Source of the DNA: a virus
Taxonomy: Duplodnaviria > Heunggongvirae > Uroviricota > Caudoviricetes
DNA length: 47,553 nt
IMG/VR virus record: IMGVR_UViG_2734482568_000006
Direction: 5' to 3' (one strand)
The position numbers were made by a program, and so were the translations under genes. Each line of letters starts with the position of its first letter. Position 1 is the stretch's first letter. Positions 477 through 47,358 of this stretch are shown in pieces. A model generated the notes under the pieces. The model was not told the origin of the DNA. It was given only the letters and a program-made list of their open reading frames with translations, and made no database searches.

Positions 477-1175
477 AATCATGTCCAGATCCGGCAGAAC
501 CAGCCTCATGCGCAGTTCTGGCTGGTTTTTGACGTTGATCGCGAGGGGGCAGCGATTGACTGGAGCGACCGGAACGCTCCCGCGCCGAACATCACCGTAA
601 AAAATCCTGTGAACGGTCATGCTCACCTGCTCTACGCGCTCAATATCGCCGTGAGAACCGCGCCGGACAGCTCGGTTAAGGCGCTGAAATACGCCGCTGC
701 GATTGAACGTTCGCTGTGTGAGAAACTTTGTGCTGATGTGAACTACAGCGGACTGATTTGTAAAAATCCGTTCCACCTGGAATGGCAGGTGATGGAGTGG
801 CGAGAGGAAGCCTATACCCTCGATGAACTGGCTGATTATCTCGATTTGAGCGCCTCAGCGCGCCGTAGCATCGATAAACATTACGGGATGGGGCGAAACT
901 GCCACCTGTTCGAAATGACGCGCAAATGGGCTTACAGGGCGATTCGTCAGGGCTGGCCCGAATTCTCACAGTGGCTTGATGCCGTGATTCAGCGTGTCGA
1001 AATGTACAACTCATCGCTTCCCGTTCCGCTTTCACCGCCTGAATGTCGGGCTATTGGCAAGAGCATTGCGAAATACACGCACAGGAACTTCACGCCGGAA
1101 ACTTTCGCACAGTATGTGGCTGATACGCACACATTAACGTACGTTTTCGTTCCATTGGCCCTCCCCCCCCGATAA
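477..1175 (+). pseudogene. Replication-initiator-like gene fragment (plasmid Replicase / PriCT-1-like C-terminal part), 5-prime disrupted
   Basis: Translation contains FDVDREGAAIDW, NGHAHLLY and GRNCHLFEMTRKWAYRAI motifs typical of plasmid/phage replicase-primase proteins. The frame is closed by a stop at 474-476 and all three frames have stops between 449 and 476; the first canonical start in frame is GTG at 609, downstream of the FDVD motif. Confidence 0.4.
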
Positions 1176-1413
1176 CGACCCAGGTAGCGCGCCGTATTCC
1201 CCCCGCCGGCCGTTTTCTTCGACATGTACATCAGGCGCGGAACTCATCGGGGCGCGGGAATGAAATCCCATTCAGACTCCGGATAGATTCAAGCAAGCCC
1301 ACTTATCGTCAAAATCGGTGTTGCAAAAACGGGAGTGACCATAGATCCGTTTTCCAAGCGGACCCCATAATATCGGCTGGTAAACATCACTCGCTAGTGC
1401 ATTCTTTTTGTTG

Positions 1414-1432
1414 GTAATGATAATCATTTACA
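1414..1432. promoter_or_regulatory. Fur-box-like operator upstream of the ChaN-like gene
   Basis: Sequence gtaatgataatcatttaca closely matches the Fur consensus GATAATGATAATCATTATC and lies about 75 bp upstream of the start at 1508. Confidence 0.5.
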
Positions 1433-1507
1433 TTCATTCTTTGATGTTTTATCATAATTAATGTTTTGTCAATAAATATATGGAAACATATTGTTTCAGA
1501 TGGGAAT

Positions 1508-2383
1508 ATGAGAAAGTTCATCCTTATTTCTATGATAACGTTAGCTAGTGTTAGTCTGGGAGCCTGCAGACAGAATGTCACCATAAAGCAGGATGCGCCA
1601 GGGCAGAAAGCTTTCCTGACTGACGGGCAGATTTACGATTTGCACAGTGGCAAAATTATTTCTAGCAGCGAGCTTTTGGCGGATCTTGCTACCGCTCGAC
1701 ATCTTATTATTGGTGAAAAACACGATAATGCCGAGCATCATCAGATTGAGCTTTGGCTTATTCAAAATTTGCTCATCCAGCGACCACAGGGGAGTGTGTT
1801 GCTTGAGATGTTGACGTCAGAGCAACAGCCCCGAGTTAACCAAGTTAAATGTTGGCTGAAAGATAATCCTGTGGTTCGAGATAGCCGTGTTCAGGAACTA
1901 CTTAACTGGCAAAAAGGGTGGTCCTGGGAGATGTATGGCGACATCGTCATGCAGCTATTACGTGGGCCTTACCCGCTGCTCAATGCCAACATTGGCCGGG
2001 AGCAGATGTTGGCACTGTACAAAAAAAACGAATTTCCTAAAGGAAAAAAATCCACTGCACCTGTGGTACAAGAAGCTCTGCGTGAAACCATCATATCTAT
2101 GCATGAAGGCAACCTTGAAAGCCAGCAACTGACGTCAATGCTCTCTATTCAGCAGCAGCGGGATCGCTACATGGCCCGCCAGCTTCTGAGTGCCCCGGTA
2201 CCGTCGTTGTTGATTGCAGGTGGTTATCACGCGTCAAAAAGCATGGGCGTACCGTTACACATGGAAGATCTTGCCACCGGCACCCATCCAGTGGTGTTGA
2301 TGCTTGCAGAAAAAGGAATGAACATCACAGTAGATCATGCTGACTACGTGTGGTTTGTAGCGCCAGATACAACAAAAAGGTAA
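1508..2383 (+). CDS. ChaN-like (haem-binding uptake, Tiki/ChaN family) lipoprotein
   Basis: Internal start MRKFILISMITLASVSLGAC gives a lipoprotein signal with lipobox; GEKHDNAEHH motif is typical of the ChaN/Cofac_haem_bdg family. Start chosen inside the 1466..2383 ORF. Confidence 0.6.
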   Translation: MRKFILISMITLASVSLGACRQNVTIKQDAPGQKAFLTDGQIYDLHSGKIISSSELLADLATARHLIIGEKHDNAEHHQIELWLIQNLLIQRPQGSVLLEMLTSEQQPRVNQVKCWLKDNPVVRDSRVQELLNWQKGWSWEMYGDIVMQLLRGPYPLLNANIGREQMLALYKKNEFPKGKKSTAPVVQEALRETIISMHEGNLESQQLTSMLSIQQQRDRYMARQLLSAPVPSLLIAGGYHASKSMGVPLHMEDLATGTHPVVLMLAEKGMNITVDHADYVWFVAPDTTKR

Positions 2384-2390
2384 ACCATGG

Positions 2391-3167
2391 ATGATGAATA
2401 TTCTCCACTTCTCACAGTCGGTAAAATGGAGCAGCTGGTTTATCTGTTCTCTACTGCTTCATGGACTGATTTTCCTTGCGTTTATCTGGCGTTTTTCCGA
2501 AGTTCAGCCCGCTATGTCTCCTGCACCGGCGATCATGCTGCAATGGGCAGAAATTATAGAGGCTCCTTCTTCTCCACTTTCGCTTCCGGTGGGAATCGCT
2601 CAACAGGAGTCCGCAGTGACAGAAGAAAAGCAACAAACTGAGGACAGACAACAACGTCCTGTCACTGAAGACAGTGATGCAACCATTGAAATAACTAGGA
2701 AGAAAAAGTCATCCGATGGAGAAAAGAAAAAGACACGTCCACCTCGTAAGATAAAGGCTCAAACCAGCGACAGCAACCCCACAGCCGTTTCCAGTAATGC
2801 TGCACCTCAGGCTCTGGTCGAATCGTCCCGTATTGCTGCGCCTTTTAACAGTGACTCAACAAAGCGAGATAATTCTGAGGCATCTTGGGAAAGCAGAGTA
2901 AAAGGCCACCTAAACCGTTATAAACGTTACCCTGGCGATGCCAGAAAACGTGCACGAACCGGCACAGCCGTCGTGACTTTTACCGTAAACACGGAAGGCA
3001 CTATTGTCAGTAGTTTCTTGGAAATCTCTTCAGGAACCCTTTCTCTTGACCGCGAAGCTATTGCTGTTTTAGAACGCGCTCAACCACTTCCCAAACCACC
3101 GCCTGAAATATTGGAGGGAGGATTATTTAAAGTAAAAATGCCGATTACCTTTAAGTTGAAGGAGTAA
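2391..3167 (+). CDS. TonB-family energy transducer (paralog)
   Basis: N-terminal TM segment with Ser/His (SLLLHG), charged Lys/Pro-rich linker, and a C-terminal TonB_C-like domain (GTAVVTFTVNTEGTIVS ... LPKPPPE). Confidence 0.7.
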   Translation: MMNILHFSQSVKWSSWFICSLLLHGLIFLAFIWRFSEVQPAMSPAPAIMLQWAEIIEAPSSPLSLPVGIAQQESAVTEEKQQTEDRQQRPVTEDSDATIEITRKKKSSDGEKKKTRPPRKIKAQTSDSNPTAVSSNAAPQALVESSRIAAPFNSDSTKRDNSEASWESRVKGHLNRYKRYPGDARKRARTGTAVVTFTVNTEGTIVSSFLEISSGTLSLDREAIAVLERAQPLPKPPPEILEGGLFKVKMPITFKLKE

Positions 3168-3335
3168 AGGGATAATTGGCCGTTCAAGTTCATTTAACTG
3201 AAATTTAATTTTCATTTTTATGCTGAACATTTTATCAAACTTTTCCACTGTCGAAAAAATCAAAAAGACAGTAGAACATAATTAATAAACAAATAGTTAT
3301 ACTTATCTTTATTAATATTATACCCAAGGAAATTT

Positions 3336-5597
3336 ATGAACGTTATAAAACTGGCTATCGGCTCAGGCATATTATTGCTCAGCTGCGGTGCTTACTCACA
3401 ATCCATCAGTGAAAAAACTAATTCCGACAAAAAAGGAGCGGCAGAATTCAGTCCGCTCAGCGTTTCTGTCGGGAAGACGACCAGTGAGCAGGAAGCTCTC
3501 GAGAAAACAGGCGCGACCAGTTCCCGGACAACGGACAAAAACCTGCAATCACTTGACGCAACAGTGCGTAGTATGCCTGGTACTTATACTCAAATAGATC
3601 CTGGTCAGGGAGCAATCAGTGTGAATATTCGAGGCATGAGCGGATTTGGTCGTGTAAACACTATGGTCGATGGTATTACCCAGAGTTTTTACGGAACCTC
3701 TACCTCCGGAACAACGACGCATGGTTCAACTAACAATATGGCTGGCGTACTTATAGATCCTAACTTACTGGTAGCAGTTGATGTTACACGCGGTGACAGC
3801 AGTGGCTCTGAAGGGATCAACGCCCTTGCCGGTAGTGCAAATATGCGTACTATTGGCGTTGACGATGTAATATTTAACGGTAATACATATGGCCTTCGTT
3901 CACGTTTCTCTGTCGGTAGTAATGGGCTGGGACGCAGCGGAATGATCGCCCTTGGTGGAAAAAGCGACGCTTTTACGGATACGGGAAGCATTGGCGTTAT
4001 GGCTGCTGTGAGCGGCAGTTCTGTGTACTCTAATTTCTCAAATGGTTCTGGAATTAACAGCAAAGAGTTTGGTTATGATAAATATATGAAGCAGAACCCC
4101 AAATCCCAACTGTATAAAATGGATATCAGACCAGACGAATTTAACAGCTTCGAACTTTCCGCTCGAACCTATGAAAATAAATTTACACGTCGTGATATAA
4201 CCAGTGACGACTATTACATTAAATATCATTACACCCCTTTTTCTGAATTAATTGACTTTAACGTAACGGCCAGTACCAGTCGCGGTAATCAAAAGTATCG
4301 TGATGGCTCGCTGTATACTTTCTACAAAACCTCAGCGCAAAATCGTTCTGACGCGCTGGATATCAACAATACCAGCCGGTTCACTGTCGCGGACAATGAC
4401 CTGGAGTTTATGCTGGGCAGCAAACTGATGCGTACCCGCTATGACCGGACCATTCACTCAGCGGCGGGCGACCCGAAAGCGAATCAGGAATCGATCGAGA
4501 ACAATCCGTTCGCACCCTCCGGCCAGCAGGATATTTCAGCGCTGTATACCGGGCTGAAGGTTACGCGCGGCATCTGGGAGGCAGATTTCAATCTCAACTA
4601 CACACGTAACAGGATCACAGGGTACAAGCCCGCCTGCGATTCACGCGTTATCTGCGTGCCACAGGGTAGCTACGATATTGACGATAAAGAGGGTGGCTTC
4701 AACCCTTCAGTTCAGCTTTCTGCTCAGGTAACACCATGGCTTCAGCCGTTCATTGGCTACAGCAAATCCATGCGCGCCCCGAACATCCAGGAGATGTTCT
4801 TCTCTAATTCAGGAGGCGCATCCATGAACCCATTCCTGAAGCCTGAACGTGCAGAAACCTGGCAGGCGGGTTTTAACATTGATACCAGAGATTTACTGGT
4901 CGAACAGGATGCCCTGCGCTTTAAGGCTCTGGCGTACCGCAGCAGGATCCAGAACTACATCTACAGCGAGTCTTATCTGGTTTGTTCTGGAGGTCGTAAA
5001 TGCAGTATGCCTGAGGTGATTGGCAATGACTGGGAGGGCATTAGCGATGAATACAGCGACAATATGTACATCTACGTTAACTCGGCAAGCGACGTTATCG
5101 CAAAGGGCTTCGAACTGGAGATGGATTATGATGCAGGTTTTGCTTTTGGCCGACTCTCTTTCAGCCAGCAGCAAACAGACCAGCCAACCTCCATCGCCAG
5201 CACCTACTTTGGCGCAGGGGATATGACCGAACTGCCCAGAAAATACATGACGCTGGATACTGGTGTTCGCTTCTTCGATAACGCGTTGACCCTGGGCACT
5301 ATCATAAAATACACAGGCAAGGCTCGTCGCCTGTCGCCTGATTTTGAGCAGGACGAACATACCGGCGCAATAATCAAACAGGATTTGCCGCAGATCCCAA
5401 CGATTATCGATCTCTATGGTACTTACGAGTACAACCGCAACCTAACACTGAAACTTTCGGTACAAAACCTGATGAACAGAGATTATTCGGAGGCGCTGAA
5501 TAAGCTCAACATGATGCCAGGTCTTGGTGACGAGACCCACCCAGCCAATTCCGCGCGTGGCAGAACATGGATATTTGGCGGGGACATTCGTTTCTGA
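3336..5597 (+). CDS. TonB-dependent outer-membrane receptor
   Basis: 753 aa with signal peptide, plug-like N-terminal region, long beta-barrel-like body and terminal aromatic residue (..GGDIRF); adjacent to the TonB paralog and ChaN-like gene. Confidence 0.85.
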   Translation: MNVIKLAIGSGILLLSCGAYSQSISEKTNSDKKGAAEFSPLSVSVGKTTSEQEALEKTGATSSRTTDKNLQSLDATVRSMPGTYTQIDPGQGAISVNIRGMSGFGRVNTMVDGITQSFYGTSTSGTTTHGSTNNMAGVLIDPNLLVAVDVTRGDSSGSEGINALAGSANMRTIGVDDVIFNGNTYGLRSRFSVGSNGLGRSGMIALGGKSDAFTDTGSIGVMAAVSGSSVYSNFSNGSGINSKEFGYDKYMKQNPKSQLYKMDIRPDEFNSFELSARTYENKFTRRDITSDDYYIKYHYTPFSELIDFNVTASTSRGNQKYRDGSLYTFYKTSAQNRSDALDINNTSRFTVADNDLEFMLGSKLMRTRYDRTIHSAAGDPKANQESIENNPFAPSGQQDISALYTGLKVTRGIWEADFNLNYTRNRITGYKPACDSRVICVPQGSYDIDDKEGGFNPSVQLSAQVTPWLQPFIGYSKSMRAPNIQEMFFSNSGGASMNPFLKPERAETWQAGFNIDTRDLLVEQDALRFKALAYRSRIQNYIYSESYLVCSGGRKCSMPEVIGNDWEGISDEYSDNMYIYVNSASDVIAKGFELEMDYDAGFAFGRLSFSQQQTDQPTSIASTYFGAGDMTELPRKYMTLDTGVRFFDNALTLGTIIKYTGKARRLSPDFEQDEHTGAIIKQDLPQIPTIIDLYGTYEYNRNLTLKLSVQNLMNRDYSEALNKLNMMPGLGDETHPANSARGRTWIFGGDIRF

Positions 5598-5665
5598 TGA
5601 CAATTTCCGCTAGGTTCAGACAATACGTTTTCTCTCTTATGTCAATTTTATTGCAGGAACGAAAA

Positions 5666-6841
5666 ATGAATATTTTCACTTTATCCAAAGCACCGCTATA
5701 CCTGTTAATTTCACTATTTTTACCCACGATGGCCATGGCTATCGATCCACCTGAACGCGAACTTTCGCGATTTGCCCTGAAAACGAATTACCTTCAGTCC
5801 CCTGATGAAGGCGTCTATGAACTGGCGTTTGATAATGCCAGTAAAAAGGTGTTTGCAGCAGTCACCGATCGTGTAAATCGTGAAGCCAATAAAGGCTATC
5901 TGTATTCGTTTAATTCAGATTCGCTGAAAGTCGAAAATAAATACACGATGCCATACCGGGCATTTTCGCTGGCGATAAATCAGGATAAACATCAGCTCTA
6001 TATCGGACACACCCAGTCAGCGTCCCTGCGTATCAGTATGTTTGACACCCCAACCGGCAAACTGGTAAGAACCAGCGACAGGTTAAGTTTTAAAGCGGCA
6101 AACGCTGCAGATTCGCGTTTTGAGCATTTTCGCCATATGGTTTACAGCCAGGATTCCGATACCCTGTTTGTGAGTTATAGCAATATGCTGAAAACGGCCG
6201 AGGGCATGAAGCCTCTGCATAAGCTGTTAATGCTCGACGGGACGACGCTTGCCTTAAAAGGCGAGGTTAAGGATGCTTACAAAGGTACAGCGTATGGTCT
6301 GACGATGGATGAAAAAACACAGAAAATCTACGTTGGCGGAAGAGATTACATCAACGAAATTGATGCGAAAAATCAGACGCTGCTGCGTACCATCCCGTTG
6401 AAAGATCCGAGACCACAAATCACAAGTGTGCAGAATCTGGCGGTGGACTCCGCTTCTGACCGTGCCTTTGTGGTGGTATTCGACCATGACGATCGTTCCG
6501 GTACAAAAGATGGACTCTATATTTTTGACTTACGCGACGGTAAACAGCTTGGCTATGTGCACACAGGAGCCGGAGCTAACGCGGTGAAATACAATCCGAA
6601 ATATAACGAACTGTATGTCACCAACTTCACTAGCGGCACCATCAGCGTAGTGGATGCCACCAAATACAGCATCACCCGTGAATTTAACATGCCGGTCTAC
6701 CCAAACCAGATGGTGTTGTCGGACGATATGGATACCCTTTACATTGGCATCAAAGAAGGCTTTAACCGCGATTGGGATCCTGATGTGTTTGTGGAAGGAG
6801 CTAAAGAACGTATTCTGAGCATTGATTTGAAAAAGTCGTGA
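5666..6841 (+). CDS. YVTN-family beta-propeller protein (YncE-like), secreted
   Basis: Internal start MNIFTLSKAPLYLLISLFLPTMAMA gives a signal peptide; repeats such as LYVTNFTSGTISVVDA match the YVTN beta-propeller repeat. YncE-like proteins are commonly encoded next to TonB-dependent receptors. Confidence 0.6.
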   Translation: MNIFTLSKAPLYLLISLFLPTMAMAIDPPERELSRFALKTNYLQSPDEGVYELAFDNASKKVFAAVTDRVNREANKGYLYSFNSDSLKVENKYTMPYRAFSLAINQDKHQLYIGHTQSASLRISMFDTPTGKLVRTSDRLSFKAANAADSRFEHFRHMVYSQDSDTLFVSYSNMLKTAEGMKPLHKLLMLDGTTLALKGEVKDAYKGTAYGLTMDEKTQKIYVGGRDYINEIDAKNQTLLRTIPLKDPRPQITSVQNLAVDSASDRAFVVVFDHDDRSGTKDGLYIFDLRDGKQLGYVHTGAGANAVKYNPKYNELYVTNFTSGTISVVDATKYSITREFNMPVYPNQMVLSDDMDTLYIGIKEGFNRDWDPDVFVEGAKERILSIDLKKS

Positions 6842-7115
6842 TCGGGGGGAAAAAACATGGGATAAAAACTCCGTTATTCCACTAAACTGGCCGGACTAGG
6901 AAAAGCAAACATCTCTGTCCTGCCGGTACGCCTGTTACGCCGCTCCATGAGGCTGAGGAATCTCCAGAAAACGAGACAGGCACAGCATTGTACGATCAAC
7001 TGATTTGTGCCAATAATTAAATGAAATCACAGCTATGCCTGTTCATGGGGTTCTAGGCCGGAACCCCAGATTTTTCCGATTGTTTGTTTTCTAACTGATT
7101 ATTCAGTAGTTTTAG

Positions 7116-7152
7116 AGGGCTGACGCTCAGTGGAACGAAAACTCACGTTAAG
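7116..7152 (+). repeat. Tn3-type terminal inverted repeat copy (solo)
   Basis: agggctgacgctcagtggaacgaaaactcacgttaag matches the 38-bp Tn3 IR (GGGGTCTGACGCTCAGTGGAACGAAAACTCACGTTAAG) except at the outer few bases. Confidence 0.7.
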
Positions 7153-7181: not shown

Positions 7182-7219
7182 GGGGTGAGTTTGGATATGG
7201 AAATTATTGTACTATAAGG
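7182..7219 (+). repeat. Degenerate Tn3-family IR copy
   Basis: ggggtgagtttggatatggaaattattgtactataagg is about 34/38 identical to the IR at 7334-7372 and in the same orientation. Confidence 0.55.
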
Positions 7220-7333: not shown

Positions 7334-7372
7334 GGGGTCAGTTTGGATATCGAAAATTATTGTACGTTAAGG
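7334..7372 (+). repeat. Tn3-family terminal inverted repeat abutting the tnpA 3-prime end
   Basis: ggggtcagtttggatatcgaaaattattgtacgttaagg has the GGGG...ACGTTAAG ends typical of Tn3-family IRs; the tnpA fragment stop lies within it, as in Tn3. Confidence 0.7.
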
Positions 7373-7828
7373 TTGTTTTTTGACCTTGTCGATCTTAACT
7401 GATCTCAAACGACGAAACTTACCTGAAGTCGGTATCCGGCTGTTTTTCCAGATATAATCGCCTGTCAGATTGATATGTTCCCAACCTAATGGTGATAAAT
7501 GCGATAATAGTTGAGCATTTATTTTCATGCCCTTACGCTTCAGAGCATCAACCGCTCTTTCCATGTAAACTGTGTTCCATAAGGAAATAGCCGCCGTCAA
7601 TAAAGTCAATCCACTGGCGCGATAACTTTGATTTTCCGGTTTCCGATCTCTAATCTCCCCCAATCGATGCATGAATACAGCACGGGCCAGAGCATTACGG
7701 GCTTCTCCTTTGTTCAGCCCGGCCTGGACACGTCGCCGCAATGCCGGATCCCGAAACCAGTCCAGCATAAACAGTGTTCGTTCTATACGGCCAATCTCTC
7801 TCAGAGCTTTAGCCAACCCATTTTGTTT
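7367..7828 (-). pseudogene. tnpA: Tn3-family transposase, C-terminal fragment (5-prime part removed by the IS66 insertion)
   Basis: Translation [30 protein letters not shown]...[18 protein letters not shown] matches the conserved C-terminus of Tn3-family TnpA; the ORF runs into the IS66 end at 7829. Confidence 0.8.
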
Positions 7829-8330
7829 GTAAGCGTGCAGCAAGAACCGTATTGACGGGAATGTGTTATTCAGTCGGCAGTGCTACGCGCCAGGGGAGCA
7901 GTTCGCCGACCCGGTTTATCGGCCAGTCGGCTATGACGTCAAGGACATAGCGGAGGTAGCTTTCTGGCTCCACTCCGTTCAGTTTGCACGTCCCGATCAG
8001 GCTGTACAGCAGCGCTCCCCGCTCTCCTCCATGATCCGAACCGAAGAACAGGTAGTTTTTGCGGCCCAGACTGACCATCCGCAACGCATTTTCAGCGATG
8101 TTATTGTCCGCCTCAGCCCAGCCATCATCTGCATAGTACGTCAGCGCCGGCCACTGGTTCAGGGCATATGCGAACGCTTTCGCCAGTTCTGAGTGTCGCG
8201 ACAGGGTTTTCATCTTTTCACGCAGCCAGCTTTCCAGGGATTTCAGCAGCGGTTTCGTTTTCAACTGACGTTCGGCAAGGCGCTGTTTCAGCAGGAAGAT
8301 GTCGTCAGAAGAGATGTCGTTCATAAGCCC
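7829..8330 (-). mobile_element. IS66-family element, distal fragment (terminal IR plus 3-prime part of tnpC)
   Basis: Terminus begins GTAAGCG (7829-7835), recalled as the IS66-family end motif, followed inward by the tnpC 3-prime end. The partner part (tnpA, tnpB) is at 47035-47553 on the far side of the prophage. Confidence 0.7.
7866..8324 (-). pseudogene. tnpC: IS66-family transposase TnpC, C-terminal fragment (about 150 aa of about 520)
   Basis: DDGWAEADNNIAENALRMVSLGRKNYLFFGSDHGGERGALLYSLIGTCKLNGVEPESYLRYVLDVIADWPINRVGELLPW matches the conserved IS66 TnpC C-terminus; the upstream frame is closed by a stop at about 8380. Confidence 0.8.
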
Positions 8331-8542: not shown

Positions 8543-9280
8543 TCATTCACTCTCTTTCAAACCAGTTTTAACTGTTTGTGGTTTTGGGTAAGGCTGGACT
8601 TTGAATAGCTTTGTGTTAAGGCGTTTTCTGGCTCTCTTGTCCAGAAACCGGATGTAACGAAACTGACGGAATTTATGAACACTGGCTCTGTCGATATTAG
8701 CCCGCAGATGTTCACCTCGCTGTCCTCCTCGTTTGATTGCATTCTTGCAAATCTCGTGATACCACTCGCCATCAAGTTCATAGAATGTTGTTTCATGACT
8801 GCCTACATAATCAAAATTGCTTGCCTGGTACACGACACCAAGACAGCCACAACGCTCATCTGCAAACGACTGAACCCACTGCACCTGCGGATAAAGTTGT
8901 CTGATTAGTTTGAGCGCGTAACTGATTGCCCTTGATTCGGAGTTTCTCGGCATACAGTCATGCAGCCATAACCGGTTAAGCTCCATATATTCGCGGTTCT
9001 GCGTGCCAGTTACGACGCGTGCACCATTGTTTGGATTAAGGGCATAACCCCATTGCATTACGCCAACCAGCTCCCGTTCTGAAAATATGCCCAGATGAAG
9101 GTAGGAATTATTTACGAAACGATGGCTGTAATGTTTATTGACGACGACCAGCCGGGCCAGCCAGCAACTTATTGTCTCAACCCGTAACTCACGGGAGCCA
9201 TAACCGACGATATTGTCGTTATAGTGAATAAGTTCAGGCGTGCTGATGATACGGGATGTAACTTGCTTTCTGTTCCCCAC
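8543..9280 (-). CDS. mom: Mom-like DNA modification protein (start uncertain, probably GTG at 9280)
   Basis: Position at the prophage end directly downstream of and overlapping a Com-like zinc-finger gene, as in Mu; size about 245 aa from the first in-frame GTG after the com region. The ORF track gives a longer 310-aa frame from 9475. Confidence 0.55.
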
Positions 9281-9434
9281 GACAGGATTTCCTTGTGTAT
9301 GTGGGGTGCTCTGTGGCGCTCTGAGATGTGATTTGATTGAGGGTTTTACAGCGCGGACATTTAACTTCCAGATAACTGAAGCTGGCTCGTGCCAGTAGCT
9401 TGTTACAATGTCGGCACCGTATGTTTCGATACAT
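9234..9434 (-). CDS. com: Com-like zinc-finger translational activator of mom
   Basis: [32 protein letters not shown] resembles Mu Com (..IRCKNCNKLLFKA..IEIRCPRCK..). AGGAGG lies 10 nt upstream of the ATG at 9434, and the 3-prime end overlaps the mom frame. Confidence 0.7.
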
Positions 9435-9570
9435 GGCCGCATAACCTCCTGCTTTGTTGTTGATATCTTTATCACTCAATCGATCGACAAAAACGATCGA
9501 TTTGATTTATTTAATTGATACAACAAATAACACGAAATGTCATTAGCGAAAATTTATGAGTTTGATCACT
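9435..9570 (-). promoter_or_regulatory. Candidate mom-operon promoter region with clustered GATC (Dam) sites
   Basis: GATC at 9482-9485, 9495-9498 (within cgatcgacaaaaacgatcg) and 9564-9567, upstream of com. Mu Pmom is controlled by Dam methylation of upstream GATC sites. Confidence 0.4.
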
Positions 9571-42510: not shown

Positions 42511-42738
42511 TTAGCTGACTTGTTTCGCACCAACAGAACGGCATATTCCGCTGTAAACTTCTGTCGCACCTTCGCGATCAAGTCCGGCAGATATCACCAT
42601 TCGTGTGCGGTCATTAAATTCAAAAAGTAAATCGCCACATTCTTTATTTTCGGCCAGTGAAATCACCTTCACGTTATCGAAATTAACCAGGTAAAAGCGT
42701 CCGTAAATATCAGGAATATTAAATACCGCCATAATCAC
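42511..42738 (-). CDS. Hypothetical early protein (75 aa), at the position of Mu kil
   Basis: Immediately downstream of B, coupled (overlapping stop/start). Confidence 0.4.
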   Translation of the reverse strand: MIMAVFNIPDIYGRFYLVNFDNVKVISLAENKECGDLLFEFNDRTRMVISAGLDREGATEVYSGICRSVGAKQVS

Positions 42739-43676
42739 ACCTGTGAGAGTAATTCAGGGTTGGTATAAACCTCTTTAAAGGCCGCATTAATATGTTTTTC
42801 TGTCAGCGCCGCGCCTTCACCGCTGGCGGTGAGCCACGCCTGGTTAAGCGTATGTGTCAGAACGCGTAACGCTCCCGGCTTTTCAGCGATAGCCTGCATG
42901 ACGGCCAGCTCGGCCTCACCACTGATCCCCCACGCCATGGCAATGGCCAGCACATCCGCCTTTTTGGCCTTGCGAAGTTGTTTTGTACGGGCAAGACGGC
43001 TGAACAGGCGCGATAAATCATCAAAGGCGCGGCGTCCACCTTTAAACAATCCGCGCGGGTTACCAATAAGCACCATCCCGATCCCCGTGGCGTCCTGAAT
43101 TGCCCGGAGTTGCTCCAGACCGTCAATACCAAGATGATCCGCCTCATCCACAATCACCAGTCCACGCGTTCCCATCAGGCGACGGCGGATGGCGCGGGAT
43201 AATGCCCCTTTGTTCGCGCGGGTGTAATCAATCCCCAGCGCATCGGCCAGCTCCAGCAGACACTCCGTGACGCTGGAGTGCGCGGGTGACAGGGTGATCA
43301 TCCAGGTGTTTGGTTGCTCCTGGCAGTAATTACGGGCAGTGGCCGTTTTACCCACACCCGGTACGCCCACAATAACGTTAATACAGCCCATCAGGCGAAC
43401 CGCCTGAAACAGTGCGCGCAGCTCCTGGACTGTCTGAGTTTCCACAAACTGCGGCGGTTCCGGCAGTGCGCTTTGTTTATTCCAGTTCTCATACCAGGAG
43501 CGCAGGGAAGCAGCCACAGCAGCGTTATCGCCTTTATATTTTCCCTTACGGAAAGCCGATAATGTGCCGTCGGAAATTCCCGCCTCTCTGGCGATGGCAT
43601 ACTGCGTCAGTACGCCGCCATCAATAAGTTCATCAATGGTCTTGATTACATCGTTAATATCGGTCATATTATTCAC
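42735..43676 (-). CDS. B: Transposition ATPase B (MuB-like AAA+ target-DNA activator)
   Basis: ALPEPPQFVETQTV ... GVPGVGKT ... WMITLSP ... LSRAIRRRL ... VIVDEADHLG parallels Mu B throughout. Confidence 0.85.
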   Translation of the reverse strand: MNNMTDINDVIKTIDELIDGGVLTQYAIAREAGISDGTLSAFRKGKYKGDNAAVAASLRSWYENWNKQSALPEPPQFVETQTVQELRALFQAVRLMGCINVIVGVPGVGKTATARNYCQEQPNTWMITLSPAHSSVTECLLELADALGIDYTRANKGALSRAIRRRLMGTRGLVIVDEADHLGIDGLEQLRAIQDATGIGMVLIGNPRGLFKGGRRAFDDLSRLFSRLARTKQLRKAKKADVLAIAMAWGISGEAELAVMQAIAEKPGALRVLTHTLNQAWLTASGEGAALTEKHINAAFKEVYTNPELLSQV

Positions 43677-43749: not shown

Positions 43750-45837
43750 TCAGGCCAGCGGATCACTTTCTTTTAATTTCGCTTCGAGCAGTTGCAATCC
43801 CCGCTGGAAATTACGCTCGTATTCTTCATCAGGTTCATCGTCAGCGACCGGTTGCTGAACGGTCACCGTATTACCCACAGGGCGGTATATGTTTTCCAGC
43901 CAGGGCTCCTGCGGCTTGTGCTCCAGCACGTTGACAACCTCATCCTCGGCATCACGGATTTTTTCCTCTGCGCGTTTACGCATGCCTTTAAGGCGCTGCT
44001 GCTGTTTGTAGTATTCCGCGCTGACAGGGAAGGCTTCGCGTTTATTGCCGTCCCATACCGCCTCGCAAATCACGCTGCCATCCGGGCGGCGCACGGTAAT
44101 TCGTTCGGCATCATGAATGTCATAGCTGATAAGTACCTTACGGCCATGCTCGTCACGCAGCTCGGGCGCGTAGTAAATATTATTCAGCCAGCGTATTTCA
44201 CAGCGTCTTACAGGGCGCTCCACCATCGGCCGGAACATATCCCGCAGTTCAACATCGGACAGCCATTCAATTTCCGTGTCCTCTTCCGCCAGGCGTTTTT
44301 TTCTGAACTCCGCCGGGCTGTAATGTTTACCGTTCGGCTTCATGGGTAATTCATCGTGCGGCCGGTTGTTGTACCACTCAACACCGTCACGAATGGCATC
44401 AATCAGTTCAGACCAGGACGGTAAATCACGCATCGCTGACTGCTGCCGGGCGTTCAGCCGTTTGCCCTGTTGCAGGGCACTGAATGCCGAGCGTAAATCG
44501 CGGTTGGTTTTACGTAACGTCTCGCGATCTGCTCCTTTCCCGAAATAGGTGCGGTATTTACGGGCTATGCGCATCGGTAATGTGCGGTTAAGCCGTTCGA
44601 TAATGCCCCGTCCCTGCGGATTACCGGCAATCCCTGTCGGGTGATTAATCCCCAGTCGTGGCAGTATCCCCACAATCTCCTTATCCAGGACGTCGGCGGT
44701 TTCCCCGGAGCCATTATCCGAGTAATACAGAAACGGTTTGCCATGATGGCGAATACCGTGCTGTATGGCACCGGCTACGGCGAAAACATTTTCAGCCAGG
44801 TCAAGGCTCCAGCCCACCACAAAGCGCGTGCCACCGTCGATAACAAAGGTCACTTCCGGTGCGAATGGCCGCCCGTGAACCGGGTGCGCGCATTTCAGCT
44901 TCATGCCGTGACCGTCACCAATCCAGACATAATTCACCGGCATTCTGGACCAGTCGCGGCGCGTGAATCCCTCAAGCTGACGGTATTCACTGCCAGTTAC
45001 CCGGCCTTTTTGTTTCACCACTTCCGGCAGTTTCTTCATTGCGCGGCGAATGGTGTCATAAGAGGGCATGATATCGAGCATATAAGGCTCATCAGCGTGC
45101 CGGTGCTGCCATTCAGCAACAAAATCCTCGTAAGCCTCGGTCATTGGTCGGCCGTTTGACTGGCGATACTGCGCCAGAAATTCGGGCAGCCAGTTAATAT
45201 CTTCGGCTTTTATTTCCTGGCGTTTACCCGGTGCCAGTAAAAGCAGGCGTTCAGCGGCGTTCTGTGCCTTGTTAAAGGCCGCAATCCAGCGTTTCAGCGT
45301 GATTTCACTCAACGCGCGGCTGTTTCCCTTTTTGGCGTTCGCCGTCTCAACCATTGCCACAATGCGCTCGTCCAGTTGTGATCGTGCCAGGCTGTTAACG
45401 AGGAACCGGATAGCTTTAGCGCAGCTGAAACCGGGTTGTTGCGTGAATTTCAGCACCTCACTGACGATCGCAATGCGTGCGTCTGCCACCTGGCGCTGGT
45501 TTTCAGTCAGGGCATTGAGGCGTTCGACCATCAGTTGTGGTGATCCGCGATATGCCTCCACCGCATCAACCACGGCAGACGAGCGTCTGGCCTTTGTCAC
45601 CACCGGAGCCGGTGATTCATCGGCTTTTTGCGTCATCAGTTGCAGGGCATAACGTTCGCGTAATGCCTGCTGTGTCACTTCAGGTAAACAGTCAATGCTG
45701 TATTCAAAACCTTTAGCGCCTTTCTTGCGGCGTCTGCTGGTTTCGCTGGTTGCATACTTCCTGATTGAATAGCGAACGCCTTGCTCCGTTCCCGGCATCC
45801 CCGGTAATCCAACCAGTTCTTTAACTGAAGCAAACAT
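43750..45837 (-). CDS. A: DDE transposase A (MuA-like)
   Basis: 695 aa between ner and B with MuA-like architecture (N-terminal winged-helix end/enhancer-binding region, central catalytic core). Confidence 0.9.
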   Translation of the reverse strand: MFASVKELVGLPGMPGTEQGVRYSIRKYATSETSRRRKKGAKGFEYSIDCLPEVTQQALRERYALQLMTQKADESPAPVVTKARRSSAVVDAVEAYRGSPQLMVERLNALTENQRQVADARIAIVSEVLKFTQQPGFSCAKAIRFLVNSLARSQLDERIVAMVETANAKKGNSRALSEITLKRWIAAFNKAQNAAERLLLLAPGKRQEIKAEDINWLPEFLAQYRQSNGRPMTEAYEDFVAEWQHRHADEPYMLDIMPSYDTIRRAMKKLPEVVKQKGRVTGSEYRQLEGFTRRDWSRMPVNYVWIGDGHGMKLKCAHPVHGRPFAPEVTFVIDGGTRFVVGWSLDLAENVFAVAGAIQHGIRHHGKPFLYYSDNGSGETADVLDKEIVGILPRLGINHPTGIAGNPQGRGIIERLNRTLPMRIARKYRTYFGKGADRETLRKTNRDLRSAFSALQQGKRLNARQQSAMRDLPSWSELIDAIRDGVEWYNNRPHDELPMKPNGKHYSPAEFRKKRLAEEDTEIEWLSDVELRDMFRPMVERPVRRCEIRWLNNIYYAPELRDEHGRKVLISYDIHDAERITVRRPDGSVICEAVWDGNKREAFPVSAEYYKQQQRLKGMRKRAEEKIRDAEDEVVNVLEHKPQEPWLENIYRPVGNTVTVQQPVADDEPDEEYERNFQRGLQLLEAKLKESDPLA

Positions 45838-46255: not shown

Positions 46256-46801
46256 ATGAACAAGCAAACAACAACATCTCTTTCTTTTCCTGGTGGTAGA
46301 AAAGAAAGCATTGCTGAGCGTCTGAAAAGGCTGATTGGCTCCCGCAGCGTCAGAGCTGCAGCAAGAGATTGGGGGCTTTCATTTTCAACACTAAACAATT
46401 ATCTGTCTCGTGGCACTGAGCCATCCTTAAGTGTCGCCCTTCAGATTGCGTCTATCGAAGGAGTAAGTGTTGAGTGGCTATGTGGATTCAGTGATGCATC
46501 ACAAGTGAATCGGTGTGAGATCAAGGAAAATCAAGATGAAAGCAAGAAGATAATTATGACGATTATCAGCGCACTTGATGAAAAAGACTTAGAGCAGCTA
46601 TCGAAAAATTTGGTTCTGAATGGAGCCAAGTACTTAGCTCGGTTGTTAGAGCCTGAAAATCAAGATCTAATCCGCTTAGAAGGAAGGAAAAGAATAGCTG
46701 CATTACAGCTTGAAGGTATGTCTGACGAACGCGTCAGAGAGATTTTGGAAGAAACTGAGAGAAGTCGCAAATCTAACGCGGTAGAACCAAAAGCGGGTTA
46801 A
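46256..46801 (+). CDS. Prophage repressor (HTH, at the position of Mu c)
   Basis: Divergent from ner; LSFSTLNNYLSRGTEPSLSVALQIASIEGVSVEWL looks like an XRE/CI-type helix-turn-helix. Confidence 0.6.
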   Translation: MNKQTTTSLSFPGGRKESIAERLKRLIGSRSVRAAARDWGLSFSTLNNYLSRGTEPSLSVALQIASIEGVSVEWLCGFSDASQVNRCEIKENQDESKKIIMTIISALDEKDLEQLSKNLVLNGAKYLARLLEPENQDLIRLEGRKRIAALQLEGMSDERVREILEETERSRKSNAVEPKAG

Positions 46802-47034: not shown

Positions 47035-47358
47035 TCACCTGGTTATATGTCGCCAGTCGATACCTTCCAGCAGCATCGCCAGCTGCGCCTGTGTAAGGAA
47101 CACTTTGCCATCACGGGCTGACGGCCAGGCGAAGCGCCCACGCTCCAGCCGTTTGGTCAGGAGGCACAGTCCGTCACTGGTGGACCACAGCAGTTTAACC
47201 TGACTGCCGCTGCGGCCCCGGAAAATGAAAACATGGCCGGACATGGGATCGTCTTTCAGCGCCGTCTGTACTTTCGCAGCCAGGCCGTTGAAGCCATTTC
47301 TCATATCGGTGATACCGGCAACCAGCCAAATTTTGATCCCGGAAGGTAACGGGATCAT
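47035..47358 (-). CDS. tnpB: IS66-family accessory protein TnpB (orf2)
   Basis: MIPLPSGIKIWLVAGITDMRNGFNGLAAKVQ...GHVFIFRGRSGSQVKLLWSTSDGLCLLTKRLERGRF is the typical IS66 Orf2 sequence; its start overlaps the upstream orf1 stop (ATGA). Confidence 0.85.
   Translation of the reverse strand: MIPLPSGIKIWLVAGITDMRNGFNGLAAKVQTALKDDPMSGHVFIFRGRSGSQVKLLWSTSDGLCLLTKRLERGRFAWPSARDGKVFLTQAQLAMLLEGIDWRHITR

Follow-up and report, generated by a model that had tools for sequence, protein, structure and literature searches.

The plasmid-borne cjrABC-senB operon, a probable iron-repressed uptake system, and its chromosomal relatives with either oligopeptidase B or SenB

A near-consensus Fur box followed by four co-directional genes, at 1414-6841 of the 47.5-kb stretch of DNA analyzed here (the window), raises the question of what these genes bring into the cell and whether they can do so by themselves. 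The initial annotation described them as an apparently self-contained iron or haem acquisition module, with a setting suggestive of horizontal acquisition; that interpretation was upheld in part. With an identity of 99% or more to the published sequence, the segment is the named, plasmid-borne cjrABC-senB locus of E. coli and Shigella, which is not new and had already been described (Smajs & Weinstock 2001; Huang et al. 2020; Micenkova et al. 2019), although the initial annotation had not recognized it as such. The best explanation for the locus as a whole, which we consider very probable, is an iron-repressed uptake operon whose cargo would be an iron-bearing ligand.

Over 5.6 kb, the region showed 99.8-99.9% nucleotide identity to many E. 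coli plasmids, on which the copies are annotated as ChaN lipoprotein, TonB, TonB-dependent receptor and senB. Of 5,426 complete E. coli genomes, 527 carried the operon, and 550 of its 552 places in those genomes were on plasmids. It was also found on Shigella pINV at 99.4% nucleotide identity, and Shigella boydii p600657_208 matched the window over the whole module in a single piece (Table 1). The copies on pINV of Shigella/EIEC and on pUTI89/pRS218-type plasmids of ExPEC shared the same genes, Fur box and module boundaries. The operon serves widely as a marker, both for pUTI89-like ExPEC virulence plasmids and for Shigella/EIEC pINV. In mice it contributes to infection of the urinary tract; it also makes its hosts more sensitive to complement and provides the route by which the narrow-spectrum colicins Js and Z enter.

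Table 1. Features of the cjrABC-senB module and its borders (window coordinates).
Feature	Position	Strand	Size, score or basis
Terminal inverted repeat, presumably Tn1000-like, 38 bp; truncates the rep pseudogene	1134..1171	-	Pair I1, outer end towards module
cjrABC-senB module common to ExPEC-type plasmids and Shigella pINV	1171..7045	+	p600657_208 alignment, 99.4%
Fur box GGTAATGATAATCATTTAC	1413..1431	+	16/19, match to 19-bp consensus
Putative sigma-70-like promoter: -35 TTTACA 1427-1432, 17-nt spacer, -10 TATCAT 1450-1455	1427..1455	+	10/12
cjrA, ChaN/PF04187-family lipoprotein	1508..2383	+	291 aa
cjrB, TonB paralogue: N-terminal anchor, charged linker, TonB_C domain	2391..3167	+	258 aa
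cjrB-cjrC spacer, AT-rich	3168..3335	+	168 bp; oligopeptidase B gene position in closest chromosomal relatives
cjrC, TonB-dependent outer-membrane receptor (colicin Js/Z receptor)	3336..5597	+	753 aa
Junction, Cedecea-like (cjrABC) to Phytobacter-like (senB) ancestry	5617..5646	+	L005 / L009 homology ends
senB/tieB, Sec-signal YncE-family seven-bladed beta-propeller	5666..6841	+	391 aa
First terminator-like hairpin after senB, 9-bp stem then T run	7046..7078	+	
Tn3-like terminal inverted repeat, 38 bp	7114..7151	+	Pair I1, outer end towards module

The Fur box stood as annotated, with intact reading frames downstream. It was the sole site with three or fewer mismatches in the 47.5-kb window, no such site arose in 100 shuffles, and the sequence at 1400-1510 was identical in the pECOED and pEcoUTI1d copies. 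The best plus-strand promoter candidate upstream of cjrA has its -35 element overlapped by the Fur box and would be expected to drive the operon. No further Fur box at 13/19 or better and no promoter-like site at the scan threshold was found in the cjrB-cjrC and cjrC-senB gaps. Because the intergenic gaps held no plus-strand terminator-like site, the only one before 7046 being a weak hairpin within cjrC, the four genes are probably transcribed as one unit; the hairpin after senB, immediately beyond the end of the Shigella-shared module, may act as its terminator. Under iron-replete conditions, Fur on its box would block the promoter -35 element, and iron limitation would allow transcription of all four genes. 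In Shigella, the operon is reportedly under temperature/VirB control. Across the family, a Fur-like site (at least 14/19, at most 300 bp upstream of the first gene) preceded 51 of 74 loci, compared with 4% of random windows. A Zur box as an alternative regulator was rejected, as Zur boxes showed no enrichment upstream of the family loci. A functional Fur box and iron repression are described in PMC7412671, citing Smajs & Weinstock 2001, the title of which includes "temperature-regulated". An Rfam scan of the whole window returned no RNA family at the gathering threshold.

The ChaN-type lipoprotein, private TonB, receptor and periplasmic propeller proposed initially were all borne out by the four products. 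CjrA scored 118.9 bits against PF04187 ChaN (Pfam cut-off 27.7), its signal peptide ends in the lipobox LGA-C20, and database copies are annotated "ChaN family lipoprotein"; residues 38-281 matched the C. jejuni ChaN structure 2G5G (E=1.1e-30). The residues GEKH (69-72), H77, H78, E81, E100, R164, H199, GGYH (238-241, including Y240 and H241) and H251 were at least 95% conserved in 76 CjrA family members. The mechanical cjrA reading frame starts at TTG 1466, and the annotated ATG 1508 is favoured because of the annotated starts and the orthologue lengths of 287-292 aa. The annotated ATG 5666 is likewise favoured for senB, whose mechanical frame starts at 5567, with orthologues of 389-391 aa. 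The TonB_C domain of CjrB exceeded the cut-offs of both PF03544 (42.6 bits) and TIGR01352 (69.9 bits). CjrC carried Plug PF07715 (40.1 bits) and barrel PF00593 (124.7 bits) domains, again above cut-off, and cjrC was 99.6-99.9% identical in nucleotides to plasmid copies. A candidate TonB box in CjrC, FSPLxVS, of which F38, S39 and P40 were invariant in 12 relatives, may pair with CjrB.

SenB has a Sec signal and a YncE-type fold. It matched PDB YncE 3VGZ at E=2.7e-22, and its AlphaFold model (pLDDT 87.2, pTM 0.85) had YncE as its top four PDB matches (E~1e-24, TM 0.86-0.88, 22% identity). Its score against the NF052280 YncE model, 158.2 bits, was far from the equivalog cut-off of 400; SenB represents a paralogous subfamily and not the YncE orthologue. 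In E. coli K-12 pqqU (yncD)-yncE, a YncE-family propeller gene also adjoins a TonB-dependent receptor gene, although the two genes there are transcribed divergently and the substrate imported by PqqU is PQQ. Deletion of yncE gave no PQQ phenotype (bioRxiv 10.1101/2022.06.07.495086).

The description of the module as self-contained did not hold. The N-terminal anchor of CjrB, CSLLLHGLIFLAF, reads S20-x3-H24 in the translation, and an S-x3-H motif is needed for TonB coupling to ExbBD. The window gave no match to ExbB or ExbD, and none of the reading frames beside the cluster encodes an inner-membrane transporter, a periplasmic binding protein or a haem oxygenase. Colicin Z entry requires cjrBC and the chromosomal exbB and exbD, with tonB dispensable (PMC6668396), and colicin Js also depends on cjrBC according to PMC7412671, citing Smajs & Weinstock 2001.

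Comparison with 80 species-level chromosomal loci placed the operon in a wider family, for which 221 loci were detected altogether. The ChaN-TonB-receptor core was present in about 76 of the 80 loci, a secreted oligopeptidase B (OpB) in 39 and SenB in 16, and OpB and SenB occurred together in none. This association of the core with either OpB or SenB, never both, among the 80 relatives is new here. The OpB gene, the product of which bears a signal peptide, lies between tonB and the receptor gene. The ChaN-TonB-OpB-receptor operons (Cedecea, Hafnia, Serratia, Rahnella, Yersinia nurmii, Photorhabdus) reached 70/70/88% identity to CjrA/B/C, with Cedecea the closest relative (CjrC identity 82-88%); they have a Fur box upstream and the core gene order of the plasmid operon, from which they differ by the presence of OpB and the absence of senB. 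The ChaN-TonB-receptor-SenB operons (Phytobacter, Klebsiella aerogenes, Raoultella, Yokenella, Leclercia, Buttiauxella and others) have the same four-gene architecture as the plasmid operon, a Fur box upstream, and SenB proteins 66-85% identical to that of the plasmid. For their first three proteins, identity to CjrA/B/C is only about 45/36/51-64%; the plasmid operon is therefore no simple copy of the SenB lineage.

Homology to the Cedecea-like locus L005 stopped at 3172, resumed at 3277 and ended at 5616, and DNA homology to the Phytobacter locus L009 began at 5647. As judged from these alignments, the plasmid operon combines Cedecea-like cjrABC, without the peptidase, and Phytobacter-like senB. 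A tblastn search of the window for an OpB remnant yielded no match with E under 0.3 and none at all within the cjrB-cjrC gap; with no decayed pseudogene found, the OpB gene is cleanly absent. The idea that SenB is a stripped-down OpB propeller was rejected at the sequence level, as BLASTP gave only a weak signal-peptide match (E=0.008). Nothing relevant was found in the literature searched tying oligopeptidase B to TonB-dependent receptors and Fur, or under the name "tieB".

Some relatives carry exbBD. We take the gene order in C. jejuni to be Cj0177 (ChaN)-Cj0178 receptor with exbB-exbD-tonB; there, likewise, genes for a ChaN lipoprotein, a TonB-dependent receptor and a dedicated Ton complex occur together, in a system with a proposed role in transferrin/lactoferrin use. 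Janthinobacterium relatives have the same set, arranged ChaN-ExbB-ExbD-TonB-receptor. The plasmid operon differs from the C. jejuni system in having no exbBD and in having senB.

These components suggest a working model. CjrC would form a 22-strand plugged outer-membrane gate energized by the co-encoded CjrB, not by TonB, and the energy would reach CjrB as proton-motive force through the chromosomally encoded ExbB-ExbD motor. CjrA and the Sec-exported SenB would be accessory envelope components of the same system. The cargo, which would be haem or else iron bound to a peptide or protein, would be taken to the periplasm and might then be passed to chromosomally encoded inner-membrane transporters. 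Published work has shown Fur/iron repression, and also that colicins Js and Z use CjrC, CjrB and ExbBD to enter; of iron uptake through this system, Huang et al. 2020 wrote that it "remains to be further confirmed". Against the model, those authors located CjrA in the inner-membrane fraction and found that operon expression weakens the outer membrane, indicating that side effects unrelated to transport exist.

On the cargo, the haem assignment of the initial annotation stands as a hypothesis, with observations on both sides. CjrA belongs by match to the ChaN haem-binding family, and the top NCBIfam models for CjrC were TIGR01785 and TIGR01786 (TonB-hemin; TonB-hemoglobin/transferrin/lactoferrin). 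Among its PDB matches, 9oaa_T ranked first (280 bits), followed by HasR, ShuA, TbpA and PhuR. The plug-apex residue His129 aligned with HasR His189 (the equivalent of ShuA His86), with a His at or beside that column in 12 of 12 aligned relatives, and the FRAP-like MRAP479 and NPNL-like NPFL498 boxes were invariant in the family. Uptake specific to haem/haemoglobin, with CjrC extracting and importing haem and CjrA binding it like C. jejuni ChaN, would fit these observations. However, CjrC fell below the cut-offs of both haem/haemoglobin models (254 against 316.85 bits; 217.6 against 323.75 bits), and although these models ranked best, it reached the curated cut-off of none of the substrate-specific receptor models. 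A His between the two boxes was absent in all 12 family members, the position of HasR His603 being Gly in CjrC. Haem oxygenase, periplasmic binding protein and ABC transporter genes were unlinked in the window and in the chromosomal loci with listed neighbours, and no haem phenotype for the operon was reported in the literature searched. We therefore regard haem-specific uptake as possible but rather unlikely. Similarity has misled before: NMB1497 (TdfH/CbpA), the nearest named relative by annotation, was wrongly taken for a haem user and acquires zinc from calprotectin (PMC3814407). Serratia CjrC orthologues are automatically named after it, which would point to piracy of zinc from calprotectin, as carried out by Neisseria TdfH (CbpA). 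That function is extremely improbable here, as the promoter, in this operon and in its relatives, bears a Fur box rather than a Zur box, expression is reported as iron-repressed (PMC7412671, citing Smajs & Weinstock 2001), and CjrC falls about 150 residues short of 9oaa_T (901 aa), the closest relative with a solved structure. 9oaa_T appears to be TdfH-like, and the residues missing from CjrC would correspond to extracellular loops.

The role of SenB bears on the same question. On Shigella pINV, a distance of 3.4 kb separates the operon from ospD3, which we take to be sen/ShET2. This position, the database name "enterotoxin production-related protein TieB" and statements in the pRS218 paper would suit senB as an enterotoxin or enterotoxin-production factor, and would make the cluster first of all a toxin/virulence locus, not a transporter. 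We find this very unlikely, because SenB is a Sec-signal YncE-type propeller in which domain searches found no toxin-like domain, and because its chromosomal orthologues are the fourth gene of Fur-box-preceded operons. Given the OpB-or-SenB pattern and the recombinant plasmid operon, SenB looks like an uptake-system component and not an enterotoxin, and the comparative pattern argues against listing it as one in virulence-gene catalogues. The pattern could also be read as a degenerate form of protease-assisted import, in which an iron-carrying peptide or small protein enters via the receptor and its dedicated TonB, as ferredoxin does via FusA/FusB, and OpB processes the periplasmic cargo, with SenB instead on the plasmid. 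The signal-peptide-bearing OpB in chromosomal relatives, Cedecea included, its mutual exclusivity with SenB and the Fur boxes across the family favour such a scheme, although the exclusivity could merely be lineage history. Oligopeptidase B is known to cut only short peptides, which counts against it, as does the lack of sequence similarity between SenB and OpB. In its favour, the Cjr system resembles FusABCD and YddB-PqqL in pairing a receptor with its own TonB paralogue, which protein bacteriocins exploit (PMC6793856, PMC13253070, PMC6668396), and in being regulated by iron, and the Cjr relatives add a periplasmic protease. However, the protease of Fus/YddB-PqqL-type systems is M16, whereas that of the Cjr relatives is an S9 oligopeptidase and the window has no protease; FusA and YddB were absent from the CjrC PDB matches at E<=1e-3, with no sequence relation detectable at that threshold, and CjrC, at 753 aa, is shorter than the ~100-kDa FusA (PMC12702245). 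Protease-assisted import is accordingly a tentative proposal that we consider unlikely. Equally doubtful is its extension to the whole Cjr family as a Fur-controlled importer of an iron-bearing peptide or small protein, not of free haem or a siderophore, with the OpB form common in enterobacterial chromosomes, SenB replacing OpB elsewhere, the plasmid operon a recombinant of both, and "enterotoxin" a misnomer for a periplasmic cargo-handling component. The OpB-or-SenB pattern, together with Fur boxes throughout, gives a concrete, testable lead on the CjrC cargo.

The surroundings of the module agreed with the suggestion of horizontal spread beside replication and transposon debris, the operon being plasmid-borne in E. 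coli and Shigella. Upstream lies a truncated replication-initiator pseudogene (609-1175), and downstream lie the 3' part of a Tn3-family tnpA (7367-7843) and an IS66 transposase fragment (7866-8324). At its left boundary (1171), the module meets the outer end of a Tn3-family inverted repeat. A composite transposon was considered and rejected, as both flanking Tn3-family repeats have their outer ends towards the module, which indicates that the module sits between two transposon remnants and is not the cargo of one. The copy in the window differs from known copies in adjoining an IS66 element that a Mu-like prophage has interrupted, a junction absent from the 5,426 complete E. coli genomes. All four reading frames are full-length, and this copy is ordinary apart from a few amino-acid changes relative to the common ExPEC proteins: R64Q in CjrA, L217F in CjrB, and four changes in CjrC clustered at residues 558-630. 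SenB is identical to the ExPEC allele.

By its sequence, the cluster at 1414-6841 corresponds to the known cjrABC-senB operon. Hundreds of E. coli plasmids matched a 5.6-kb portion of the window at 99.8-99.9% identity, and on these the genes are annotated as ChaN family lipoprotein, energy transducer TonB, TonB-dependent receptor and senB ("enterotoxin production-related protein TieB"). The whole cluster was present in 527 of 5,426 complete E. coli genomes (550 of 552 places plasmid-borne), cjrC alone matched 558 PLSDB plasmids, among them 517 from Escherichia, 20 from Shigella and 18 from Klebsiella, and the invasion plasmid (pINV) of Shigella boydii aligned with 1171-7045 in a single piece at 99.4%. 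The system is already known and extremely common, and not new. ExPEC virulence plasmids carry the operon, which plays a part in urinary-tract infection (PMC7412671). The original operon paper (Smajs and Weinstock 2001, J Bacteriol 183:3958), as cited in PMC7412671, is credited with "a functional fur box", repression of expression by iron, and the requirement of cjrBC for colicin Js sensitivity. CjrC is also the receptor for colicin Z, with CjrB, ExbB and ExbD being needed and TonB and the Tol proteins not (PMC6668396).

The Fur box matched the 19-bp consensus at 16 of 19 positions and was the sole site with three or fewer mismatches in the whole 47.5-kb window; no match arose in 100 dinucleotide-preserving shuffles of the window. 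Of the sigma-70-like promoters ahead of the genes, the best (17-nt spacer) has its -35 hexamer overlapped by this box, the classical layout for repression by promoter occlusion. Four intact, full-length ORFs followed in the same direction, bearing out the initial annotation, which had placed a near-consensus Fur box ahead of four co-directional genes for a ChaN-type lipoprotein, its own TonB, a receptor and a propeller. Two mechanically called starts were corrected from annotated copies to the ATG codons at 1508 (cjrA) and 5666 (senB), consistent with orthologue lengths of 287-292 aa (CjrA) and 389-391 aa (SenB).

Features of the cjrABC-senB region, its flanks and the adjoining prophage
Feature	Coordinates	Remarks
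Replication-initiator gene	609-1175	frameshifted, truncated; upstream of module
Tn1000-like (presumed) 38-bp inverted repeat	1134-1171	cuts replication-initiator gene; outer GGGG end faces module
Fur box	1413-1431	GGTAATGATAATCATTTAC
-35 hexamer	1427-1432	TTTACA
-10 hexamer	1450-1455	TATCAT
cjrA	1508-2383	+ strand
cjrB	2391-3167	+ strand
cjrB-cjrC spacer	3168-3335	168 bp, AT-rich
cjrC	3336-5597	+ strand
senB/tieB	5666-6841	+ strand
Tn3-like (presumed) 38-bp inverted repeat	7114-7151	downstream; outer GGGG end faces module
Two repeat-like 38-mers	7182-7219, 7334-7372	direct orientation; beside Tn3 tnpA 3' fragment
Tn3 tnpA 3' fragment (7367-7843)		downstream of module
IS66 transposase, C-terminal part	7866-8324	IS66 sequence resumes at 47048
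Mu-like prophage	~8411-47047	~38.6 kb, minus strand
Mom/Com	8543-9475	prophage
MuB	42735-43676	prophage
MuA transposase	43750-45837	prophage
Repressor-like HTH gene	46256-46801	prophage

CjrA (291 aa) carries a lipoprotein signal ending LGA-C20, scored 118.9 bits against PF04187 (cut-off 27.7) and matched the C. jejuni ChaN structure 2G5G (E=1e-30). Residues conserved in at least 95% of 76 family members (GEKH69-72, H77, H78, E81, E100, R164, H199, GGYH238-241, H251) look like a putative metal or ligand site. The lipobox cysteine is followed by Arg, not Asp (C20-R21-Q22; 1508-1570), and by the E. coli +2 sorting rule, under which a non-Asp residue predicts outer-membrane targeting, CjrA would be sent to the outer membrane. 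Contrary to this prediction, CjrA was recovered in the inner-membrane fraction (Huang et al. 2020). CjrB (258 aa) has a TonB C-terminal domain and S20-x3-H24 in its N-terminal anchor. TonB uses the S-x3-H motif for coupling to ExbBD, and its presence in CjrB agrees with the published requirement for ExbBD. CjrC (753 aa) comprises Plug and barrel domains, with a conserved FSPLxVS motif at the expected TonB-box position and, in the family alignment, two invariant Cys pairs. SenB (391 aa) has a Sec signal peptide (…TMAMA/IDPP) and a YncE-type propeller (PDB 3VGZ, E=2.7e-22), and the four top PDB matches of its AlphaFold model (pLDDT 87, pTM 0.85) were E. coli YncE structures at TM 0.86-0.88. Against the common ExPEC alleles, the differences were R64Q in CjrA and L217F in CjrB, with SenB identical, and four CjrC substitutions (relative to WP_001100763.1) clustered at residues 558-630, within 72 residues (window/ExPEC M558/L, D565/G, Y624/H, M630/I). 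At 558 and 624, the window residue was that of the closest chromosomal relatives.

Scanning a single genome from each GTDB species by pattern yielded 221 loci encoding CjrC relatives, and architectures were assigned to the best 80 by tblastn with one probe per component. The order ChaN-TonB-OpB-receptor, in which OpB is a secreted oligopeptidase B paralogue, was found at 39 loci, two of them also with ExbBD (Cedecea, Hafnia, Serratia, Rahnella, Yersinia nurmii, Photorhabdus, Xenorhabdus, Pantoea), and ChaN-ExbB-ExbD-TonB-receptor at 21, plus two truncated (Janthinobacterium, Massilia). ChaN-TonB-receptor-SenB accounted for 16, one truncated to receptor-SenB (Phytobacter, Klebsiella, Raoultella, Yokenella, Leclercia, Silvania, Pluralibacter, Intestinirhabdus, Buttiauxella), and two Kerstersia loci had the receptor alone. 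OpB and SenB never occurred in one locus among these 80. OpB scored 898-946 bits to the PtrB model, under its 1313-bit equivalog cut-off, and ~890 bits to Serratia OpB structures; it carries an N-terminal signal peptide, and the solved enzymes have none. Signal-peptide OpB lay inside Fur-box-preceded ChaN-TonB-receptor operons at L002, L003, L005, L007 and 35 more of these comparison loci (e.g., L005:5799-7904). The literature searched contained no description of an association of OpB with TonB-receptor/Fur operons. The architecture comparison, likewise not found in the literature examined, provides a modest new lead on the CjrC cargo and the role of SenB.

The initial annotation had read the cluster as a self-contained iron/haem uptake module. 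A Fur-controlled cluster was upheld; self-containment was not, as exbB and exbD were absent from the 47.5 kb searched and no inner-membrane transporter, periplasmic binding protein or haem oxygenase adjoined the cluster among the ORFs checked. The missing exbBD indicated dependence on chromosomal ExbBD, as published for colicin entry, and chromosomal inner-membrane transporters are presumably also required. We consider it very likely that this known Fur-repressed operon serves uptake of an iron-bearing ligand, in which CjrC would act as a gated channel in the outer membrane, powered by CjrB through chromosomal ExbBD, and CjrA and SenB would be envelope accessories. Fur and iron control and colicin entry come from the literature; nutrient import and a single transcript we infer.

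That the cargo is specifically haem is possible, though doubtful. The best NCBIfam models for CjrC were haem/haemoglobin and haemoglobin/transferrin/lactoferrin receptor subfamilies, both scoring below cut-off (254 vs 316.85 and 217.6 vs 323.75 bits). The best solved relative was 9oaa_T, a 901-aa receptor (280 bits), followed by HasR (~101 bits), ShuA, TbpA and PhuR. Plug His129 aligned to HasR His189, and FRAP-like (MRAP479) and NPNL-like (NPFL498) boxes are retained; the HasR His603 position between these boxes is Gly in CjrC, and no aligned family member had a His between them. CjrC orthologues in Serratia are automatically named after NMB1497, which is TdfH/CbpA, the meningococcal calprotectin/zinc receptor, whose history is an explicit warning that haem use is not to be assigned by similarity (PMC3814407). 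A zinc/calprotectin receptor is nevertheless scarcely credible, as Fur-like sites (at least 14/19, within 300 bp 5' of the first gene) preceded 51 of 74 related loci vs 4% of random windows, and Zur boxes were not enriched upstream of the same family set; regulation thus argues for iron and against zinc.

A protease-assisted peptide or protein import system, with OpB exchanged for SenB, would accommodate the mutually exclusive architectures and seems unlikely. An enterotoxin locus, as the plasmid annotation of senB implies, is highly improbable. We argue that SenB is an uptake-system component and not an enterotoxin, based on its conserved place as fourth gene in Fur-box-preceded chromosomal operons, its Sec signal and its YncE fold. 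Many genera with chromosomal SenB operons are environmental or commensal. Near the operon on pINV, at distances of 1.7-3.4 kb, are ospC1 and ospD3, the latter presumably the sen/ShET2 gene, and this nearness may explain the senB name. In E. coli K-12 (L095, NC_000913.3 1520963-1524368), yncE is divergently oriented beside yncD, a TonB-dependent receptor gene whose current annotation is pqqU (outer-membrane transporter of PQQ); this pair is a second example of a YncE-family propeller gene neighbouring one for such a receptor. Deletion of yncE gave no PQQ-uptake phenotype (bioRxiv 10.1101/2022.06.07.495086).

The plasmid operon appeared to be a mosaic. CjrA, CjrB and CjrC were 70, 68-70 and 88% identical to proteins of Cedecea, which has OpB and lacks SenB; SenB was 85% identical to Phytobacter SenB, whereas the Phytobacter receptor shared just 51% with CjrC. 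In a neighbour-joining tree, CjrC was sister to Cedecea davisae within a seven-locus OpB-type clade (split bootstrap 100/100). DNA homology to the Cedecea-like locus covered 1622-3172 and 3277-5616, and homology to Phytobacter started at 5647. These identities, the tree and the homology blocks indicated that the plasmid operon is a Cedecea-like cjrABC that lost OpB, joined to a Phytobacter-like senB with the seam at ~5617-5646. An unsampled donor natively having the same arrangement is a further possibility. Tblastn of the window found the OpB gene cleanly absent, with no remnant, and the cjrB-cjrC spacer occupies the peptidase position. An Enterobacter cloacae plasmid, pM12X01451 (NZ_CP017473.1, L094), carried a ~91%-identical four-gene unit with other flanks, adjoining rclR, and another promoter region with a Fur-like AATGATAATAGGTTTCATT still upstream; this divergent unit indicated that the recombination predates the spread in E. 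coli and Shigella. Its cjrB-cjrC spacer was different and shorter. Within the very AT-rich spacer of the window, the imperfect inverted pair CTGAAAT-ttaa-TTTTCAT (~3197-3214) is similar to the VirB-box motif, RWG(G)AAAT, and could relate to the temperature/VirB control of the operon in Shigella.

The cluster does sit beside replication and transposon debris, as first noted, with the replication-initiator pseudogene, Tn3-family repeats, and tnpA and IS66 fragments flanking it. We take the two flanking repeats to be Tn1000-like and Tn3-like from Tn3-family ends; as their outer ends both face the module, transposon remnants bracket it, and it is not the cargo of one. The left repeat ends exactly where the pINV homology starts. 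The prophage was inserted in the IS66 element, and this junction was covered by none of the 5,426 complete E. coli genomes; the closest relatives of the prophage in the plasmid collection were only 82-93% identical. Its ends read TATAGCG... and ...GGTTATA, with CATTTGATACCG motifs repeated at both; Mu ends are TG...CA.
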